Part shown: positions 2,431 to 64,000 of the stretch, piece after piece
How the letters are laid out: each line of letters starts with the position of its first letter
Position numbering within the stretch: position 1 is the stretch's first letter
IMG/VR virus record: IMGVR_UViG_3300020045_009368
Span: 1-64,000 of that record
DNA length: 64,000 bases
From: a virus
Direction: 5' to 3' (one strand)
Position numbers and translations under genes: made by a program
Notes under the pieces: generated by a model
Told to the model about the DNA's origin: nothing
Seen by the model: the letters and a program-made list of their open reading frames with translations, nothing else
Database searches by the model: none

Positions 2431-5400
2431 TTATTTACAATTTAATTTTTGCCACTCAATTGTAGCTTTTTCTTCTTCTGATAAATTACTAAAATCATTT
2501 TCAATAATTTCTTCAATAACATCTTCTCTATAATAAACATCTCTTGGTAAAACTGCTTCTTTATACAAAGCTTCTATTTTAGTTTTATCATATAAATTAC
2601 CAATTGCAATTGTAGTTGGTTTTAACATTATACCATCAGTATTAAAATTAATAATTCTATTACCTTTTTTATCTTTCTTATTAAGTAGTTGAACATCTAC
2701 ATATTCACCTTTAATATTAGGAATAAATCTAGCATAAACACCTTTGTATTGTGAATTATAACCAATTAGTTTATAATAAATATTACCTTGTTCATTTTGT
2801 TTAACTCTAAAATAACCTTGTTTACCAGCTTTTTTCATTACAAAACCATTATTTGTTTTTAATGAATTTTTTTCAATTTGACTATCTGTAATATTTTTAA
2901 CAAATTTAGAATTTTCTAAATTAGCTAAAAAGAATTGATCGGTAAATTCATCTTCATTAAATTCATTAAATGAATCATAATTACGTGCAGTATCTATAAT
3001 ATATCTATTAATTTTATTTCTACTAAACCATTGTGATGGTATCATAGTAAAAAATTGATTCATATTCATAGCAAAACCTGAAGTTAAATAAGAATATTTA
3101 ATTAATTTATCTGTAAATTCTGGTTCATCATTTAATAAATCTGAAAAAGAATCAACCATATTGTTTTCAAATTCAGTAGATTTTTTTCTATTATTTAATA
3201 CAACAAAATCTCTATTTTCACCAGGTTTAACTATCATTTGATCAATTATAGTATAAACACCTTTATTATCATTTTTAAACTGTTCAAATTCTTTAGAAAA
3301 ATTAATTAATAAATCTTTTTTTTCTTCAACAGTAATTTTTAAAGGTTGAAATCCTGACATTATATAACTATAGTGATTTTTTTCTAATATTGTTCCTAAA
3401 TTTTTTTCACCAATTGTAGTATCTATTAAAATGGTTCCTTTAATATCATAAGATATTTCATTAAATGTATTTTGAACTGTTTTATTTGCAGATAAAAATA
3501 ATTTAGGATTAGCTCTAACAATTCTTTCAGTACCAAGTATAATATTATTATAATAATTATTAAACATTGAACTAGAACCATTAGGATTAGTAAATTTAGA
3601 TTTAAATCCTGTTATAATATTTTTTCTAAATTTAGATTTATCAGGTAATCTATTATATTTATTTTCGGCATTTAATATAAAATCAACTAAATTTTTAGCA
3701 ATATATAATGAAGTAACATTTTTACCCATACCATTAACCATAAATTTAGAACCATCAATATTATTTTTAATTGCTTTAGATGCAGATTGATAATTTAAAA
3801 AATCTTTAAAAATATCATATTGAAAACGTTCATTATACTCATTAATATTTTTTCTTAAAAATTCTAAATTATTTCTTTTATTATATATAGTACCAACTAA
3901 ACTTTCTTCAATATCTAAATAATTTTCTCCAAAATAACTAATTTTAAAAGCTTCTGCAGTACTAATATTTTGATTTTGAGAACTTTCATATTGTTCAGCA
4001 AATTCTACATACGCTTTAATAACAGGTTGAGCTAAAAAAGCATTTACATAAAATGGATGTAAACCTTTACGAAGTAATAAATTACCTGTATTAGTTGTCA
4101 TAGTAACCCAGTTACCTTCAGTAATATATGGATCTTTAGCAATATCAACAAATGCATTTAGAATTGCAGATATAGAATGAGATATTTTAATAGATTTTAA
4201 TTCATTAACCTGATTATCTGTTAAATTTAATTCTTTTTTATAAAAAGCTAAATCATGATCAGATAATGGTTGTGAATATTCTTCATCTAATTTATTATTA
4301 GTTCTATCTATATCAAAATTAGTAATTCCTAAATCAGATAAACTCCCTAACACATAATCCATTAAAGCGTTAGCTTCTTGACCAACTCCAGCTTTACCAG
4401 CTAAGAAACTATATTTAACATCTATATCTTCAATTGGATCAAATAAACTAAGATTAGTAATAGGTTTTTGTTTAAACATACTTCTAATATCATTTTTCAT
4501 ATGATCAAAATCAATAGGTGTCATTACATCTTTAATTACATTTTCATTAAGTAAAGTTGCTTTATATAATTCTATTAATCTATTTTGTAATGCTTCTTTA
4601 GTTTGTTCTGAATCAGGTTTAGTATTATCATAATTAACATAAACTAATTTATTATTTTCAAATTTATAACTTGGAAACATTAAATACATTTTATCAATAT
4701 CATAATCCGAACCTGTTTTAGTAGTAATACCTGTATAAGCTACAACAGTATCACCATTTTCTTCAGGAAGAATACCTACAATTTCTAATGCATCATTAGA
4801 AGATAAACCTTGATTAGGAATTCTATATCCAATAATATTTTCAGATATTTTTCTATCTATAATTTCATTAAATAATTTTTCTGGACTATATTTTTTATAA
4901 TCTGGAATATATTTAGCAATAAAACTACCCGATATTAATATACCACCTGGTCTAATTATTTTTTTACCACTTTCAGATAAAATATAATTATCATTTTCAT
5001 CTTTAAGAAATTGTGGTTCATGTGTAGTAGATAATGCTCTAGGACTCCAAATAACACCTTGTACTTCAGCATTTTCTTTAGTAAGACCAAAGTTACTCAT
5101 TTGAATAAATGACCCACCATTTGTCTTAATTTTAAGAATACGTTTGTTCATTATAGAACTAAATATATTCTGTAATTTAGATTGTGCTTGAGGTATTCCA
5201 TATATAGAAGTTTCAGATTCTAAAGCATTGATGATATTTTGTGAACCACCTCTACTTTTTAATTCTGAAATAATAGTTTTATAAAAACCTTCAATATTAG
5301 TAATAACTCCATCTTCACCAATTCCAAATTCATCTAAAACAGAATTATAACCTCTATTAGATAACTCACCAATTACATTAGCTATATTTTCAATCATTTC

Positions 5401-52753: not shown

Positions 52754-52807
52754 TTTAATACTTATAGCTTTCTTAACACTAATTAACTAACATCTAACTA
52801 TTAAATT

Positions 52808-53053
52808 ATGGAAATATTATACTCATTAATTTGCATTGTATTATTCTTATTAATACTAATTTGTGTAAATAATACAAATAAATCATCCAAAATTACAAAT
52901 AAACCAAGACCAACAATAAATAAATCACAATCTTTACCACCTAAAGGGCCTAAATCTAAACGTCAATGTTTATGTGGTTATACTGAAATATGTCCATCTC
53001 AAGAAGGTATTTGTACTAATTTATGTGTTGGTGGAGATGATTGGAATGATTAA
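52808..53053 (+). CDS. Small membrane protein with Cys-rich C-terminus
   Basis: N-terminal TM helix; CLCG...C...C...C. Confidence 0.55.
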   Translation: MEILYSLICIVLFLLILICVNNTNKSSKITNKPRPTINKSQSLPPKGPKSKRQCLCGYTEICPSQEGICTNLCVGGDDWND

Positions 53054-53061
53054 AACAATTT

Positions 53062-53248
53062 AATAGTTAAATAAGGCACTGTACGTGGAGTACAGCTTAA
53101 ATAAAATATTACTTTCCCTAATAAGTCTAAATTATTATATTGTAATAAATACAACAGTATCTATAAATGTATAAAATATGTGCAACCTTTAGAAAGTTAA
53201 CAACATAATCAATTTATAATAGTATGTGAGATATACTAATTAACTATT
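53062..53248 (+). ncRNA. Stem-closed structured element
   Basis: AATAGTTAA/TTAACTATT; CTGTAC/GTACAG hairpin; 3' AGTAT-GTGAGAT-ATACT hairpin. Confidence 0.5.
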
Positions 53249-53285
53249 TATTTAAAACAATTAACTAACAACTAAAACTAATATT

Positions 53286-53510
53286 ATGAAAGTATTTCTA
53301 GTTTACAGTATTATAACAAATACATCAAAACCATCACATTATGCTTCTTATAAAACAGAAACATTAGAAGGTATGTTTGATACTAATGAACAAGCATTAA
53401 TAAAAGTAGATGAATTACATTCTAAATTTAGAGAGCTTGAAGAAGAATATCCTGAATATTATTTCACTAATGTTGAAATTAGAGAAAATATAGTACATAT
53501 ATCTAATTAA
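53286..53510 (+). CDS. Hypothetical early protein
   Basis: ORF with AACTAA...ATTATG leader. Confidence 0.6.
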   Translation: MKVFLVYSIITNTSKPSHYASYKTETLEGMFDTNEQALIKVDELHSKFRELEEEYPEYYFTNVEIRENIVHISN

Positions 53511-53542
53511 AACAAATTATTAACTGACTAAATAACAAAACA

Positions 53543-53905
53543 ATGAAAGCTTATTTTCAAAACAAACTAGTATCTATTAAAGACAAAATTAATAGTACAT
53601 CAAAACAAATCATTAAAGGTGTTGATGAATACAAATTAAATGAAATAGTGTCATTATCACAATCATTAAAAGTATTAAAACAACAGCATGAAGAGTTAAC
53701 TAAAGATGCTGTAAAGTATTTATCAGTTGATGACATCATAGGACTTGCAAATCATAAAGCATCAAGCTATTCTCCAGAAGTAGTTAATCTTCTTGATAAA
53801 TACCCTCTTGAATCTGCCTTTAAACATGATAGAACTGTAACTATTCTTGAAAGAGAAAAACTTGTTCTTACATTTGGCTATTCATTAAGAGATGCAAAAG
53901 TATAA
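53543..53905 (+). CDS. Hypothetical early protein
   Basis: 120 aa ORF. Confidence 0.6.
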   Translation: MKAYFQNKLVSIKDKINSTSKQIIKGVDEYKLNEIVSLSQSLKVLKQQHEELTKDAVKYLSVDDIIGLANHKASSYSPEVVNLLDKYPLESAFKHDRTVTILEREKLVLTFGYSLRDAKV

Positions 53906-53913
53906 CAACACTT

Positions 53914-54160
53914 TAGTCAGTCAATTACAGGTAATGCTGGGTTGACTGATTATATTAAATTAAACTCTTGTCTTATCATATGTGTAAGCTAAGTGGTGGA
54001 TTTCGTATTACCAACAAGAGTTTTATTAAACTAATAATAGTTATAATGTATGGAATTATTATATATGATTTAATCACATATATAGTGACACATAGGTTGA
54101 ATAAGTTTAATGTGATTAATTAAATACAACTGCTGGAAACGTAACATTATAACTATTATT
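53914..54160 (+). ncRNA. Three tandem stem-closed elements (53914-53952, 53962-54023, 54033-54160)
   Basis: Terminal inverted repeats, e.g. AAACTCTTGT/ACAAGAGTTT and 17-bp AATAATAGTTATAATGT/ACATTATAACTATTATT. Confidence 0.55.
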
Positions 54161-54187
54161 TTTATTAACTAACTAAACAATAACATT

Positions 54188-54343
54188 ATGAAAACAAAAG
54201 TATTTACAGAGTATGGTTCACACTTAGAATCAAAAGTAAATGAATGGTTATTAAAAAATAATAAAATTAACATTAGTTTTATAACTCAGTCATCAACTGA
54301 ATGTATAACTGTTTTAACAATATTTTATGTTGATTTAAATTAA
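54188..54343 (+). CDS. Small protein, 51 aa (below the ORF-track cutoff)
   Basis: MKTKVFTEYGSHLESKVNEWL...; typical leader. Confidence 0.55.
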   Translation: MKTKVFTEYGSHLESKVNEWLLKNNKINISFITQSSTECITVLTIFYVDLN

Positions 54344-54349
54344 TTAATT

Positions 54350-54463
54350 ATGAAAACAATAAAACATTTATTCAAACTAATATATTGTATGTGTGATAGA
54401 AGTCATTCAGACAATAATTTACCTAATCCTAAATGTACCAATTGTGGTCATTTATTACCTTAA
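54350..54463 (+). CDS. Small Cys-rich peptide, 37 aa
   Basis: MKTIKHLFKLIYCMCD...CTNCGHLLP. Confidence 0.5.
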   Translation: MKTIKHLFKLIYCMCDRSHSDNNLPNPKCTNCGHLLP

Positions 54464-54468
54464 TTATT

Positions 54469-54741
54469 ATGACAAATAAAAAAATAATAATAATTGGTGC
54501 AATGTTAGGTCATGAATTACATACTAATGCATTACATTATCATAGATTAGAAAAAATTGAACCTATTATTATAACTGGTTTAACACAAACTAAACATGAT
54601 GTATCATTACCTAATGTTTTAGATAACAATATTGTAATGAAAATGAACCACAGTTATAATACTAATTTAATAGTTAAAGACTGTATTAACAAACGTAATA
54701 AATTTGTTAATAAACCTAAATTCTTACGTAAAAAGAAATAA
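54469..54741 (+). CDS. Hypothetical protein
   Basis: Likely start MTNKK after the ATTATTATG leader. Confidence 0.5.
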   Translation: MTNKKIIIIGAMLGHELHTNALHYHRLEKIEPIIITGLTQTKHDVSLPNVLDNNIVMKMNHSYNTNLIVKDCINKRNKFVNKPKFLRKKK

Positions 54742-54906
54742 TATTAATCCCAAATCTATATTATGTCAACAATAACTAACTTACAAATTGAACAGTTTTA
54801 TAACAAAGATAATAAAACTGAAGGTTCTAATTTTACACCATTTAATAATATATCACCAACCTTGGTTAAAATTATTAAAGAGGTATTAACTAACAAATAA
54901 CAAATT

Positions 54907-55452
54907 ATGAAAAAATTATTATTAATTGTATTACTGATAACTAGTTTATCTAATGCACAACAAACAGAAAGAGATTTTAAATTTCTTTTAAGTTTAGGAG
55001 TTGATCCAAGAATGGCAACAGTAGGACCTCATGATGGGCAAGAAAATAATAAACCAACTTTAGATATTGAAGGATCTATTGGTTTTGAATGGGAAAACAA
55101 TCGTATTATGATGCAATATAAAAGTCATAAAGCAATTAATTTTGCAAAATGGACATATATTCAATATGATTTAAAAACAAATCTTTTTAAAAATGTTTAT
55201 GGTTATGGTGGTTTAGAAGTTAGTCAAATAATTAAAAAACATCCAGATGCGTTATATGATCAACCAGATAATTATAGAGATACAACTATAAATCCTATTA
55301 TTTTTGGTGCAAATTTAGAAGTTCAATGGAAGTTTAATGATGATAAATTTGGAATTGGTTCACAATTCTCAATGTATCAAGCAGAAGATGAACTAAAAGA
55401 ATATAAGAAATTTCGTAAAGAAGTTACAATTACATTATTTATGTATTTTTAA
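54907..55452 (+). CDS. Secreted outer-membrane beta-barrel-like protein
   Basis: Sec signal peptide (MKKLLLIVLLITSLSNA), amphipathic strands and terminal Phe. Confidence 0.65.
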   Translation: MKKLLLIVLLITSLSNAQQTERDFKFLLSLGVDPRMATVGPHDGQENNKPTLDIEGSIGFEWENNRIMMQYKSHKAINFAKWTYIQYDLKTNLFKNVYGYGGLEVSQIIKKHPDALYDQPDNYRDTTINPIIFGANLEVQWKFNDDKFGIGSQFSMYQAEDELKEYKKFRKEVTITLFMYF

Positions 55453-60455: not shown

Positions 60456-61612
60456 TGATTTGGTATGCAATACTTATCCCACTAGTAATATCATTAGTGG
60501 GATATTTTCTATACAAGCATAAATTTGCTTGGTGGGAATTATTTTTACCTGTAATCATTTCATTAATCACAATTATAACATCTTTTTATAGTATGAAATC
60601 TTATACTTTAAGTGATGTTGAATATAATGGTTATTTAATTACTGAAGCTAGATATTATGAATCTTATGAAACATGGGTTAAAAAAACATGTTCATATACT
60701 ACATGTAGTGGTTCAGGTAAAACTAGAACTTGTACAACACATTATTATGATTGTTCATATTGTGATTATAATTCTGAATATTGGGTTATGGTTGATACTA
60801 AAGGTAATGAAATTGGTATTAGTGAGCAAAAGTATAATCAATTAATTAAAAAATGGTCAGCTACACCTAAATTTGTAGAATTAAATAGAAATATTAATTA
60901 TCATGGTAGTTGTGGAAAAGATGGAGATATGTATTCTATTAAATGGAATAAACATATTCAAACATCTGAAACATCTACATATGAAAAAGAATTTACTAAT
61001 ATTTTAAAATGTAATCATTCTGCATTTAATTTCCCAATTATAGAAAAAAAAGATGCTATTAAATTAGGTTTGTATGAATATCCTATAATAGGAGAATATA
61101 ATAAACAAAATTCTGTAATAGGTCTTAGTCAATTAAATATTAAAGGTAAAAAACAATTACAAACAACAATGAATTATCTTAATGGTAATTTAGGTGTTTC
61201 TAATAAAGTTAGAGTTTATACTTTGTTTTTTGTAGATAAAGAAATTGATATTGCTTTTAAACAAGAAGCCTATTGGGATGGTGGTAATCAGAATGAATTA
61301 GTTGTATGTATTGGTGTTGATAAAATAGGTAATATTAAATGGTGTAAACCTTTTACTTGGTGTGATAATAAAAGAATGATTGTAGATACTAGAGAAGATA
61401 TTATGAATATGAAATCTATTAATAGTACTAAAATGTATAATATCTATAAAAATAATATTATGTTATTTTGGAAATATAAATCATTTAAAGATTTTAATTA
61501 TTTATCATTTGAACCTTCAACAGGACAATTAATATTTGTTTATGTATTAACTACAATTATATCATTATTGTTAACAATATGGTGTATATATAATGATATA
61601 GATAACGAATAA
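60455..61612 (+). CDS. Membrane protein with Cys-rich loop and TPM-like C-terminal domain
   Basis: Two N-terminal TMs, CSYTTCSG...C...CSYC, YWDGGNQNELVVCIG and a C-terminal TM; translationally coupled to the LemA-like gene. Confidence 0.55.
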   Translation: MIWYAILIPLVISLVGYFLYKHKFAWWELFLPVIISLITIITSFYSMKSYTLSDVEYNGYLITEARYYESYETWVKKTCSYTTCSGSGKTRTCTTHYYDCSYCDYNSEYWVMVDTKGNEIGISEQKYNQLIKKWSATPKFVELNRNINYHGSCGKDGDMYSIKWNKHIQTSETSTYEKEFTNILKCNHSAFNFPIIEKKDAIKLGLYEYPIIGEYNKQNSVIGLSQLNIKGKKQLQTTMNYLNGNLGVSNKVRVYTLFFVDKEIDIAFKQEAYWDGGNQNELVVCIGVDKIGNIKWCKPFTWCDNKRMIVDTREDIMNMKSINSTKMYNIYKNNIMLFWKYKSFKDFNYLSFEPSTGQLIFVYVLTTIISLLLTIWCIYNDIDNE

Positions 61613-61756
61613 AACAATAACAAACCATTAATTAATAAATATGAAAATAAACATTATGAAGTGGTTAAATGATAGTATTCTATCAAATAAAATATTGGGA
61701 ATTGAGCAAAAGCTCTCTAAGAAAAGTAGATAACAAGTCTTCCACTACTATATTTT

Positions 61757-61838
61757 AAAATGTGATCGTCTAGTGCCACTTAAGACAGCAGTACATCCAG
61801 TATTGAAAACGTAGGTTGAAATCCTACAATATCATTTT
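61757..61838 (+). tRNA. Degenerate tRNA-like cloverleaf (pseudo-tRNA; TCC at anticodon position)
   Basis: GTCT/AGAC D arm, CAGTA-CATCCAG-TATTG arm and GTAGG-TTGAAAT-CCTAC T arm; imperfect acceptor stem. Confidence 0.5.
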
Positions 61839-61954
61839 GTCGCTCAGCTATATATCCAGGCTTAATCAAATAATGGATTGTAAAGAAATATAGAGTTCTA
61901 TAATTGATTTAGAACTCTATATATTTCTATTAACTAACTAAACAATAATAAATT

Positions 61955-62233
61955 ATGAATATATTAGCACAATACAATAATCTTTTTAAAAAAGATGAAT
62001 TAGTATATATTGAAGATCCAATTTTAAATATTAAAGGTTTAGCTAAAGTAGTAAATACTTGTTATTTATCAGAATTACCTAAATCAGAATTACCTTATGG
62101 TTGGAGATATGGATTAAATTTTCCTCAAATAATTGTACATTTTGAAAATGAAAAAGATCCTAAAGCACATGTTTTATATCCTTGTGATGAATTTAAATAT
62201 ATTAAAAAACTAATTTGTCCTGTAAAAGAATAA
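61955..62233 (+). CDS. Hypothetical protein
   Basis: 92 aa ORF. Confidence 0.55.
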   Translation: MNILAQYNNLFKKDELVYIEDPILNIKGLAKVVNTCYLSELPKSELPYGWRYGLNFPQIIVHFENEKDPKAHVLYPCDEFKYIKKLICPVKE

Positions 62234-62348
62234 ATTATGGATTTATATCAAAAACTACTATTCTCTAATGGAGAAATTGTATATCAATATATATTTAATA
62301 CTGTTGATTTAAATAATGGATTAAAAAATAACTAAATTTAATTAAATT

Positions 62349-62579
62349 ATGGAAACATTAATAATAATTTTATATGTAATAATAACACAAATTATATGTT
62401 ATTATATTAATAAATCAATTCTTAAAAAAACTCTTAAACACGATAGTGTTTACAATTGGGGATTAGTTAATACTAATTTACTAATGAGTTTTTTTATAGC
62501 ACCGTCTGTAATCTATTGGATATTAGTATTTATACTAAATTTACCAAGATTACCAGAAGAACCACCTAAATGGTTGTAA
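62349..62579 (+). CDS. Small membrane protein
   Basis: Two TM helices; PPKWL C-terminus. Confidence 0.55.
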   Translation: METLIIILYVIITQIICYYINKSILKKTLKHDSVYNWGLVNTNLLMSFFIAPSVIYWILVFILNLPRLPEEPPKWL

Positions 62580-62580
62580 A

Positions 62581-62796
62581 ATGACTAAAGAAGAAAAAGT
62601 TAAGTTAAAACAAGAACGTGCTCATAGAAGAAAACATAAAAGATATTTAAAAGATCAAGAATATTATAATCTTGCTCGTAATAAAGATATTAATAGAATA
62701 TCTATTGGAAGAAAAATAGCAAAAGGTAGATATTTTCAATGTGAAATGGGTTATGGTGATTGTGAAGATAGAGGTTACTGTAATGGTGATTGTTAA
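62581..62796 (+). CDS. Small basic protein with Cys-rich C-terminus
   Basis: CEMGYGDCEDRGYCNGDC. Confidence 0.55.
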   Translation: MTKEEKVKLKQERAHRRKHKRYLKDQEYYNLARNKDINRISIGRKIAKGRYFQCEMGYGDCEDRGYCNGDC

Positions 62797-62809
62797 AATA
62801 TTTAAAATT

Positions 62810-62868
62810 TGGGATATAGCTCAATTGGAAGAGCAGTGTTTTTCTAGGTTCAATTCCTAGTATCCCAA
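62810..62868 (+). ncRNA. tRNA-like RNA lacking the anticodon arm
   Basis: TGGGATA/TATCCCA acceptor stem, GCTC-AATTGGAA-GAGC D arm, 9-nt linker, CTAGG-TTCAATT-CCTAG T arm. Confidence 0.8.
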
Positions 62869-62935
62869 CTAACAAATTTTCATAATTTTTGTTAGTAAAA
62901 TGTTAGTAAAATAACATTTTGTTTTAGTTAGTTGG

Positions 62936-62994
62936 ATAAATTGAGTGAAATTGGGTAACTGCGAAATCAGATATGTAATAGTAGCTCAATTTAT
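62936..62994 (+). ncRNA. Stem-closed structured element
   Basis: ATAAATTGAG/CTCAATTTAT; internal CTG-CGAAAT-CAG hairpin. Confidence 0.45.
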
Positions 62995-63049
62995 TTTTAA
63001 ATAACTACAAAATTATGAATAATAAAATAAACTAAAAATAATAAAAATT

Positions 63050-64000
63050 ATGAATAAAAATGAATTAAAAAAAGGAGAAATTTATGCATATATACCTGAT
63101 AGTAATACTTTTGGATTAACAGGAGATAATCCTTTTATTTTTGTAGCTGATCCTATTAAAAATACATCACAAACAACAGGTACTAAATATTGTGTAGTAA
63201 ATACACAAGAATATTTTAGATCAAATCTTAGATGTTATTGGACAAAAGGTCTAAGACATGCAACTCCAGAAGAAAAACATTGGCTCAACACTTGTATAGA
63301 ACAAAATAAATTTGTATCTTATGAAGAAGCTATGAAAACATTTATTCCTGAATATGTTGAATGTATTAATAATAAAGATATTCCTTATGGAATAATTGGA
63401 AGAATTTATAAATTTAATAACTTATCTGGAAAACATTGGGGACTTAAATGTAATTTAAAATGTGCAAATTACGATCCAGATACTACTTTATATTTTGAAA
63501 TATATCAAGTTAAACCATCAACTAAAGAAGCTTACGATGCTCAATTTGTAGTTAAAGAACCTGAGTTTGTATTACCTGAAAAATGGTATATTAAAATAAA
63601 ATCAACAGAAGAAGCTAATATTTATAAAGATTTTTTTAAAAAAGTAAAACCTAATCAAAATTGGGTTTTTTGGATTGATTTTATATATGGTTTTAATGGT
63701 ATTAACTATACAAATAGTGAATCACAAGGAACATTGATAACTTTTGAACAATTTGAAAAATATGTTTTGAAAGAAACTGAAGAATTAAGTCCTTTAAAAT
63801 TAGCAGCTATTGAACATCCTCATTTAGCTAAAGTTGAATCTAAACCATTTGAAATATTATCAATTATTAATAATATTACTAAAGAACAATTAGATCTTAA
63901 AAAAGATGGTTACTTTAGAAGTAAATTTTCTAGTATTCATTTAAACAATGTTAATGATAAATATTCAATTGTTTCAGTTGCTAATAAAGAAGGTAATATA
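63050..64000 (+). CDS. Hypothetical multi-module protein, truncated at the window end
   Basis: Open frame MNKNELKKGEIY...RHATPEEKHWL...LPEKWYIK; absent from the ORF track because it has no stop in the window. Confidence 0.6.
   Translation, partial: MNKNELKKGEIYAYIPDSNTFGLTGDNPFIFVADPIKNTSQTTGTKYCVVNTQEYFRSNLRCYWTKGLRHATPEEKHWLNTCIEQNKFVSYEEAMKTFIPEYVECINNKDIPYGIIGRIYKFNNLSGKHWGLKCNLKCANYDPDTTLYFEIYQVKPSTKEAYDAQFVVKEPEFVLPEKWYIKIKSTEEANIYKDFFKKVKPNQNWVFWIDFIYGFNGINYTNSESQGTLITFEQFEKYVLKETEELSPLKLAAIEHPHLAKVESKPFEILSIINNITKEQLDLKKDGYFRSKFSSIHLNNVNDKYSIVSVANKEGNI

Follow-up and report, generated by a model that had tools for sequence, protein, structure and literature searches.

A predicted RNA behind a degenerate tRNA gene, conserved in about 25 related phages, mirrors the early-gene start sites of a crAss-like phage

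The window analyzed here is a stretch of 64,000 nucleotides, the first 64 kb of a 99,779-bp viral genome with 24.7% GC. Its portal protein is 57% identical to that of Cellulophaga phage phi14:2 and 43-48% identical to those of gut crAss-like phages, and the genome is therefore an uncultured member of the Crassvirales. The genes at 1-51.6 kb lie on the minus strand and encode the large structural and virion proteins, whereas from 51.7 kb onwards nearly all genes are on the plus strand, starting with about 35 small genes, referred to below as the early block. A tRNA-like element followed by a non-coding segment lies on the plus strand just downstream of this block, and a gene for a 621-aa protein follows. 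Between the conserved upstream gene (ending ...PEEPPKWL*) and the tRNA-like element, this phage alone carries a 71-aa ORF (62581-62796), basic at its N-terminus and Cys-rich at its C-terminus, with no Pfam match. A Pfam search of nine neighbouring proteins returned no family. A preliminary description had proposed that the segment at 62865-62935 is antisense to the translation-start consensus of the phage, is closed by its own stem, and could be released by 3' processing of the tRNA-like element as a multi-target antisense RNA of about 70 nt silencing early or host mRNAs. We therefore examined the sequence, the relatives and the predicted targets of this segment. The parts of the locus and the predicted targets are as follows.

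62810-62868, plus strand: tRNA-like element with acceptor stem, D arm and T arm, in which 4 nt replace the 17-nt anticodon arm and no CCA is encoded; proposed RNase P/RNase Z processing handle.
62868-62896, plus strand: hairpin 1, with its 5' arm at 62868-62876, loop TTTTCATAATT at 62877-62887 and 3' arm at 62888-62896; the loop holds the word TTTCATAAT (62878-62886), the complement of the start consensus AUUAUGAAA.
62897-62920, plus strand: hairpin 2 (AAAATGTTA / TAACATTTT), an insertion specific to this lineage with a tandem GTTAGTAAAAT duplication.
62924-62933, plus strand: largely unpaired linker word TTAGTTAGTT, the complement of the early leader box AACUAACUAA.
62934-62998, plus strand: long terminator-like hairpin (62934-62996) with a 12-bp basal stem GGATAAATTGAG / CTCAATTTATTT, the conserved internal motif GUGAAA (62945-62950) opposite AGUAGC (62980-62985), a variable interior, and a T-run at 62994-62998.
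62865-62935, plus strand: outer stem CCAACTAAC / GTTAGTTGG, an alternative pairing in this phage only.
54167-54196, plus strand: predicted target, the start region of the gene at 54188, containing both AACTAACTAA and ATTATGAAA, 8 nt apart.
61932-61963, plus strand: predicted target, the start region of the gene at 61955 (AACTAACTAA ... ATTATGAAT).
52785-54915, plus strand: span holding further predicted target start regions with the AACTAAC leader box (genes at 52808, 53286 and 54907), which are among the top predicted duplex targets.

We first verified the sequence features on which the antisense proposal rests, and the observation held. Both plus-strand words are present, TTTTCATAATTTTTGTTAGT at 62877-62896 and CATTTTGTTTTAGTTAGTTGG at 62915-62935, as is the 9-bp inverted repeat CCAACTAAC (62865-62873) / GTTAGTTGG (62927-62935). 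The word AAATTATGAAAA occurs with its ATG at 54907, 57005 and 59364, as the preliminary description had claimed, and at four further plus-strand sites, and its only antisense copy is at 62877. The start consensus of 123 gene calls, made crudely as the longest ORF with the first ATG, is ATT ATG AAA at -3 to +6. The leader box TTAACTAAC lies 19-23 nt upstream of the ATG of six genes, at 52808, 53286, 54188, 54907, 61955 and 25931, five of them in the early block. Genome-wide, AACTAAC is no more frequent than base composition predicts (15 observed against 23 expected), and what is unusual is its position in leaders, not its count. The leader box TAACTAACTAA (54166-54176 and 61931-61941) carries TAA in all three reading frames and its complement carries TAG in two or three frames, and the box could also act as an all-frame stop in front of early genes. 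Directly before the leader box of gene 61955, at 61872-61931, lies a perfect hairpin (ATATAGAGTTCTA...TAGAACTCTATAT), one of many structured spacers in the early region.

The upstream element scored 46.5 bits on the Rfam tRNA model, with the anticodon arm deleted in the alignment, and ARAGORN found no tRNA anywhere in the genome; it is therefore not a canonical tRNA with a complete cloverleaf. A scan of 61500-64000 against the Rfam covariance models at E <= 10, which includes any C4 model that Rfam holds, listed only this tRNA and chance-level hits, with nothing but tRNA over the module. The trailer starts one base after the discriminator, on the same strand. In the relatives described below, hairpin 1 begins 0-2 nt after the discriminator, which leaves no room for a promoter between the tRNA and the trailer.

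To determine whether the arrangement exists outside this genome, we searched for relatives. Searches of the region and of the downstream protein by blastn and tblastn against 50,697 phage records found no close relative among cultured phages, and the exact tRNA-like word had no match in IMG/VR. By contrast, six IMG/VR contigs (L002 to L007; related contigs are denoted by L and a number) were found only through distant homologues of the 621-aa protein (31-38% amino acid identity). They carry a tRNA at the same place (Glu, Pro or Leu) or a tRNA-like element that ARAGORN rejects, and behind it the same non-coding module. Pattern scans raised the family to at least about 25 distinct uncultured phage contigs. 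The module is found once per genome, including once in each of four complete or nearly complete genomes of about 100 kb. Members found by pattern scans are biased towards exact words, and the unbiased set has eight loci. The module is absent from phi14:2 and from the gut crAss phages crAss001, cr108_1, IAS virus and DAC15. In 185,579 bacterial genomes the module pattern gave 46 hits, and those inspected read as ordinary minus-strand gene starts with no tRNA or hairpin in front, so there is no sign of the module in host genomes. The preliminary description assumed a Flavobacterium host; this was a guess, and the nearest cultured relative infects Cellulophaga.

The tRNA slot is variable among the relatives. 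L003, L004, L007, L037 and L121 have canonical tRNAs (Glu, Pro, Leu, Val), while L006, L108, L158 and L162 have tRNA-like elements that ARAGORN rejects even at a relaxed threshold. The armless element is not unique to this phage: by hand parsing, L002 (5590-5650), L151 (same element as L002) and L005 (5560-5620) also have an acceptor stem, D arm and T arm with only about 10 nt where the anticodon arm should be. In addition, ARAGORN called tmRNA-like genes, with tags ending ...KTEMLIAA* or ...KLAMVA*, in L002 (1296-1657), L003 (2435-2827) and phi14:2 (4031-4500) but none in this window; in phi14:2 the call falls inside the long intergenic region reported as abundantly transcribed non-coding RNA (10.1101/2020.03.07.982082), and these calls may be false positives.

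We next analyzed whether the module behaves as an RNA structure on the plus strand. Eighteen members have 15 distinct hairpin-1 stems of 4-9 contiguous pairs (6-9 in all but L005, whose stem is interrupted by a mismatch), and every one of the first five stem positions shows several Watson-Crick pair types. There are 13 G.U pairs, which would be C.A mismatches on the other strand. Each 5' arm pairs with its own 3' arm over 7.8 contiguous pairs on average, against 1.25 with the 3' arms of other members. On a plain MAFFT alignment, in which three rows are out of register, the covariation score was 0.505 against 0.177 +/- 0.042 for shuffles (0 of 500 as high), and with the partners slid by one to three columns it reached at most 0.293. 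The basal stem of the long hairpin also covaries (A-T to G-C, and T-A to A-T to G-C) over 15 distinct stems. This stem, of 7-12 bp, is followed by a T-run on the plus strand in all members, and it is the only such hairpin in the genome; a consensus terminator scanner did not list it, because its loop is too long and it has few G-C pairs. From its sequence pattern, the GUGAAA/AGUA(R)C pair resembles the bulged-G (sarcin-ricin, loop E) motif AGUA/GAA and may bind a protein, which is our inference. Between these two conserved strands the interior falls into at least five unrelated sequence classes, one of which is an insertion of about 100 nt in L005 and L006 that contains a T-loop-like GTTCGAGTC. 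A 60.6-kb wastewater-metagenome contig is nearly identical to the window on both sides (5 differences in 296 nt) but replaces the 93 nt at 62896-62988 with 99 unrelated letters. The interior of the trailer therefore turns over quickly, being swapped between very close relatives.

Within this folded RNA, two words are kept: UUUCAUAAU in the loop and UUAGUUAGUU in the linker. Both TTTCATAAT and TTAGTTAGTT are exact in all seven members ascertained without using them, namely the window and L002-L007. L015, also found through the protein, keeps UUCAUAAU and UAGUUAGU, with TAGTTAGT in the linker. A scan that required only the linker and the long hairpin, and not the loop, found six further members, of which five have TTCATAAT in the loop while one (L211) has a different loop and has lost the CAU. 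The predicted unpaired probability over 22 members was 0.83 for the loop word and 0.65 for the linker, against 0.42 for the RNA as a whole. Hairpin 2 is absent from most relatives, and L121 and L234 have unrelated hairpins inserted at the same point; all three known insertions between loop and linker are self-contained hairpins, so the two words stay topologically adjacent.

Two features of the preliminary description are specific to this lineage. The outer stem CCAACTAAC / GTTAGTTGG is the minimum-energy fold of the isolated 81-nt piece, but not of the longer RNA or of the processed trailer; it is not conserved in relatives, competes with a conserved hairpin, and was rejected as a defining feature. 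The second CAT (62915-62917) lies in hairpin 2, and only the anti-AUG word at 62878-62886 is conserved. The unit is also longer than about 70 nt, because it runs on into the conserved terminator-like hairpin ending near 62998.

We then turned to the target side. The loop word is the exact complement of the start consensus AUUAUGAAA at -3 to +6, and the linker is the exact complement of AACUAACUAA. Exact ATTATGAAA starts occur at 9 of 35 early-block genes and 0 of 88 others (Fisher 5e-6). In two complete relatives (G001 and G002), genes with this core and with AACTAAC leaders cluster in the roughly 10 kb upstream of the module on the same strand, as they do here. In contrast, phi14:2, the only module-free phage checked for the leader box, has no AACTAAC leader, and ATTATGAAA occurs there at its chance frequency. 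The 8-10 nt between the two words, which form the 3' arm of hairpin 1, match the 6-10 nt between leader box and start context in the targets. Between 51.6 and 66 kb, 62878 is the only intergenic plus-strand site with at least 8 of 9 matches to TTTCATAAT, and no second anti-start hairpin was found elsewhere in the early region.

Chance complementarity of AT-rich sequence had been named beforehand as a refuting outcome, and we compared the RNAduplex energies of the trailer against all start regions (-30 to +15) with those of dinucleotide-preserving shuffles. In this genome the mean of the ten best energies was -19.4 kcal/mol, against -16.3 +/- 1.1 for the shuffles, 1 of 200 being as low. The corresponding values were -17.5 against -13.4 +/- 1.0 for G001 and -19.3 against -13.4 +/- 1.0 for G002, with 0 of 100 shuffles as low in each. 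Nearby early genes paired better than the other genes in the three genomes (Mann-Whitney p 6e-4, 0.004 and 1e-6, respectively), and nearly all of the best predicted targets are early-block genes. RNAduplex ignores intramolecular structure and allows large interior loops, so these figures measure complementarity, not affinity.

Concerning the position of the module, in relatives the tRNA follows the stop codon of the upstream gene by 10-15 nt, and we found no conserved extended -10 or Bacteroidota TAnnTTTG word upstream of the tRNA slot; the TGTTAAAAT at 62791-62799 is private to this phage. The module is therefore most simply the last element of the early transcription unit. After the T-run comes a conserved A/T-rich stretch (62996-63049), whose apparent mini-ORF (63015-63035, MNNKIN*) is not conserved as an ORF, the ATG being AGG in L006 and GTG in L151 and L234. 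This stretch keeps TGAATAAT, which resembles an extended -10 box, and a promoter scanner listed TTTAAA-16-AATAAT at 62996-63023. This suggests a promoter for the next gene set, in line with the sigma-70-like middle promoters reported for phi14:2 (10.1101/2020.03.07.982082). Among sequencing runs, no RNA data set was listed for the stretch, and contigs from three metagenome runs of possible RNA origin and one DNA run covered only neighbouring pieces and give neither ends nor strand.

Taken together, these results support the preliminary interpretation only in part. Sequence comparison and statistics show that positions 62869 to about 62998 form a conserved non-coding RNA of a clade of environmental crAss-like phages. 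This RNA lies on the plus strand as the 3' trailer of a tRNA-like gene, folds into hairpin 1 and a terminator-like hairpin, and presents two mostly unpaired words that are the exact complements of the start-codon context and the leader box shared by the early genes upstream. These features, with stems that covary around the unchanged words, are what a tRNA-released, multi-target antisense RNA would predict. The remainder is inferred from sequence alone: transcription by read-through at the end of the early block, release by RNase P and RNase Z at the tRNA(-like) handle, and pairing of the free RNA through its loop and linker with the initiation regions of early mRNAs, which would block ribosome entry and shut down that gene class; any targeting of host mRNAs is likewise only a proposal. 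Bacteroidota initiate translation on A-rich, unstructured leaders without Shine-Dalgarno pairing, so masking the leader should be an effective block. The processing idea is supported by the absence of an encoded CCA, by the retention of the acceptor and T arms that RNase P and RNase Z recognise, and by a slot that tolerates canonical, armless and otherwise degenerate tRNAs, as expected for a processing handle. We favour this reading, a tRNA-released RNA that masks early translation starts, but only tentatively, with less than even confidence. Both words are AU-rich, and each duplex of 9-10 bp is weak. Only two genes in this genome (54188 and 61955) match both words fully, while most early genes match partly, and one RNA would have to titrate many mRNAs. 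L211 has lost the CAU loop, and because loop and linker otherwise never vary, the family offers no covariation between regulator and target. Moreover, early transcription in crAss-like phages is by a virion RNA polymerase whose start and stop signals are unknown (10.1101/2020.03.07.982082), so that the 3' end given here is a guess.

Other explanations appear less likely. The module could be only a processing, stability and termination element, with hairpin 1 and the linker bound by a nuclease or another protein as recognition or protection signals for tRNA 3' maturation and for the operon end, and with the complementarity as a by-product, for example of an ancient inverted duplication of a leader. 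Its constant position directly 3' of a tRNA(-like) element, the covarying hairpin with its T-run, the leader-like 5' arm of hairpin 1 (AACTAACAAA), which an inverted duplication would leave, and L211, which keeps the rest of the module without the CAU loop, agree with this view. However, this unlikely reading does not explain why 9 + 10 unvarying, unpaired nucleotides with matching spacing equal the complement of the start region of one gene class, why that class is the adjacent one in three genomes, or why phi14:2 lacks both the module and the leader box. A cis-acting 5' untranslated regulator, in which the loop on read-through transcripts would pair with the first ATTATGAA after the terminator (63012-63019, or the gene start at 63047-63055) to control the downstream gene, is more doubtful still. 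The first ATG after the hairpin does lie in an ATTATGAA(A/T) context in most members, but ATTATGAA is simply the general start consensus, that ATG is replaced in L006, L151 and L234 while the loop is unchanged, so the pairing is not maintained, a terminator-like hairpin lies in between, and the module precedes unrelated downstream genes in different phages, such as L092, L159 and L162.

Mimicry of the anticodon stem-loop of a CAU tRNA (Met or Ile2), as a decoy or ligand for a tRNA-binding enzyme or a host anticodon nuclease, is suggested by UUCAUAA in the loop, which would read as U33, C34 A35 U36, A37, the canonical anticodon-loop pattern, and by the neighbouring tRNAs that in some members have lost their own anticodon arm. 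We consider this improbable, since the loop has 8-11 nt and never 7, the stems have 6-9 bp, are AU-rich and lack the G-C pairs typical of initiator tRNA, the hairpin is also present behind complete tRNAs, and neither the linker UUAGUUAGUU nor its match to the leader box is explained. Equally improbable is function of the minus strand or of the DNA itself, as a real minus-strand leader and start of a mini-ORF or as a pair of inverted protein-binding sites. Although the reverse complement reads as a complete early-type start region, and the bacterial hits inspected read as real minus-strand gene starts, the minus-strand ORFs have 4-6 codons and are not conserved (MKIC*, MKSSL*, MKYSLY*), the G.U pairs would become C.A mismatches, the T-run follows the hairpin only on the plus strand, and all neighbouring genes are on the plus strand. 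None of these rival readings accounts for both words, their spacing and the class-specific targets together.

The separate steps of the proposed mechanism have precedents. 3'ETS-leuZ of E. coli is a regulatory RNA made from the 3' external transcribed spacer of a tRNA operon (10.1101/2021.04.25.441314), reportedly also described by Lalaouna et al. (2015). It lies directly 3' of a tRNA, ends at the operon terminator, is released by tRNA processing and acts by base pairing; however, it sponges small RNAs with the help of Hfq, whereas the present element is complementary to mRNA start regions, shows one seed in a hairpin loop, is phage-encoded, belongs to a phylum that mostly lacks Hfq, and has no sequence similarity to it. 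The C4 antisense RNA of phages P1 and P7 (PMC8198154) is encoded on the same strand and in the same operon as its targets, is cut out of its precursor by a tRNA-processing enzyme (RNase P; PMC3858429, PMC3378863) and represses by pairing at a ribosome-binding region, but it has a single target operon (icd/ant), controls lysogeny and is not fused to a tRNA, while the present element would address a whole class of genes. The TMERs of murine gammaherpesvirus 68 (PMC4045068) combine a viral, non-decoding tRNA-like element with one or two regulatory hairpins released by tRNase Z; they belong to a eukaryotic virus, are transcribed by RNA polymerase III and carry microRNA precursors for RISC, and the resemblance is one of architecture only. 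The RegA repressor of phage T4 shuts off many early mRNAs by occupying the start-codon region, but it is a protein, whereas the effector proposed here is an RNA. Finally, phi14:2, the nearest cultured relative, produces abundant early intergenic non-coding transcripts of unknown function from its early region (10.1101/2020.03.07.982082), although it lacks this module and the AACTAAC leader.

In its furthest-reaching form, which remains possible but which we hold with less confidence than the reading above, a clade of environmental crAss-like phages would end its early gene block with an anti-initiation RNA. A tRNA, or a tRNA stripped of its anticodon arm and kept only as an RNase P/Z handle, would release a small RNA whose loop and adjacent linker pair at the same time with the start-codon context and the leader box that tag the early genes, and the whole temporal class would thereby be switched off after transcription, as an RNA counterpart of T4 RegA. 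For crAss-like phages, which are among the most abundant viruses of Bacteroidota, and in which the way early genes are switched off is unknown and no early promoter or regulator has been defined even in the model phage phi14:2, a conserved RNA that mirrors the start-region tag of the early genes gives a concrete hypothesis that can be tested by mutation. The module also marks the boundary between early and middle genes, which helps in annotating uncultured crAss-like genomes. If the hypothesis is correct, it would also explain why these phages keep tRNA genes that can no longer decode, and it would add a class-wide, loop-presented antisense regulator to the few small RNAs known in a phylum that initiates translation without Shine-Dalgarno pairing.
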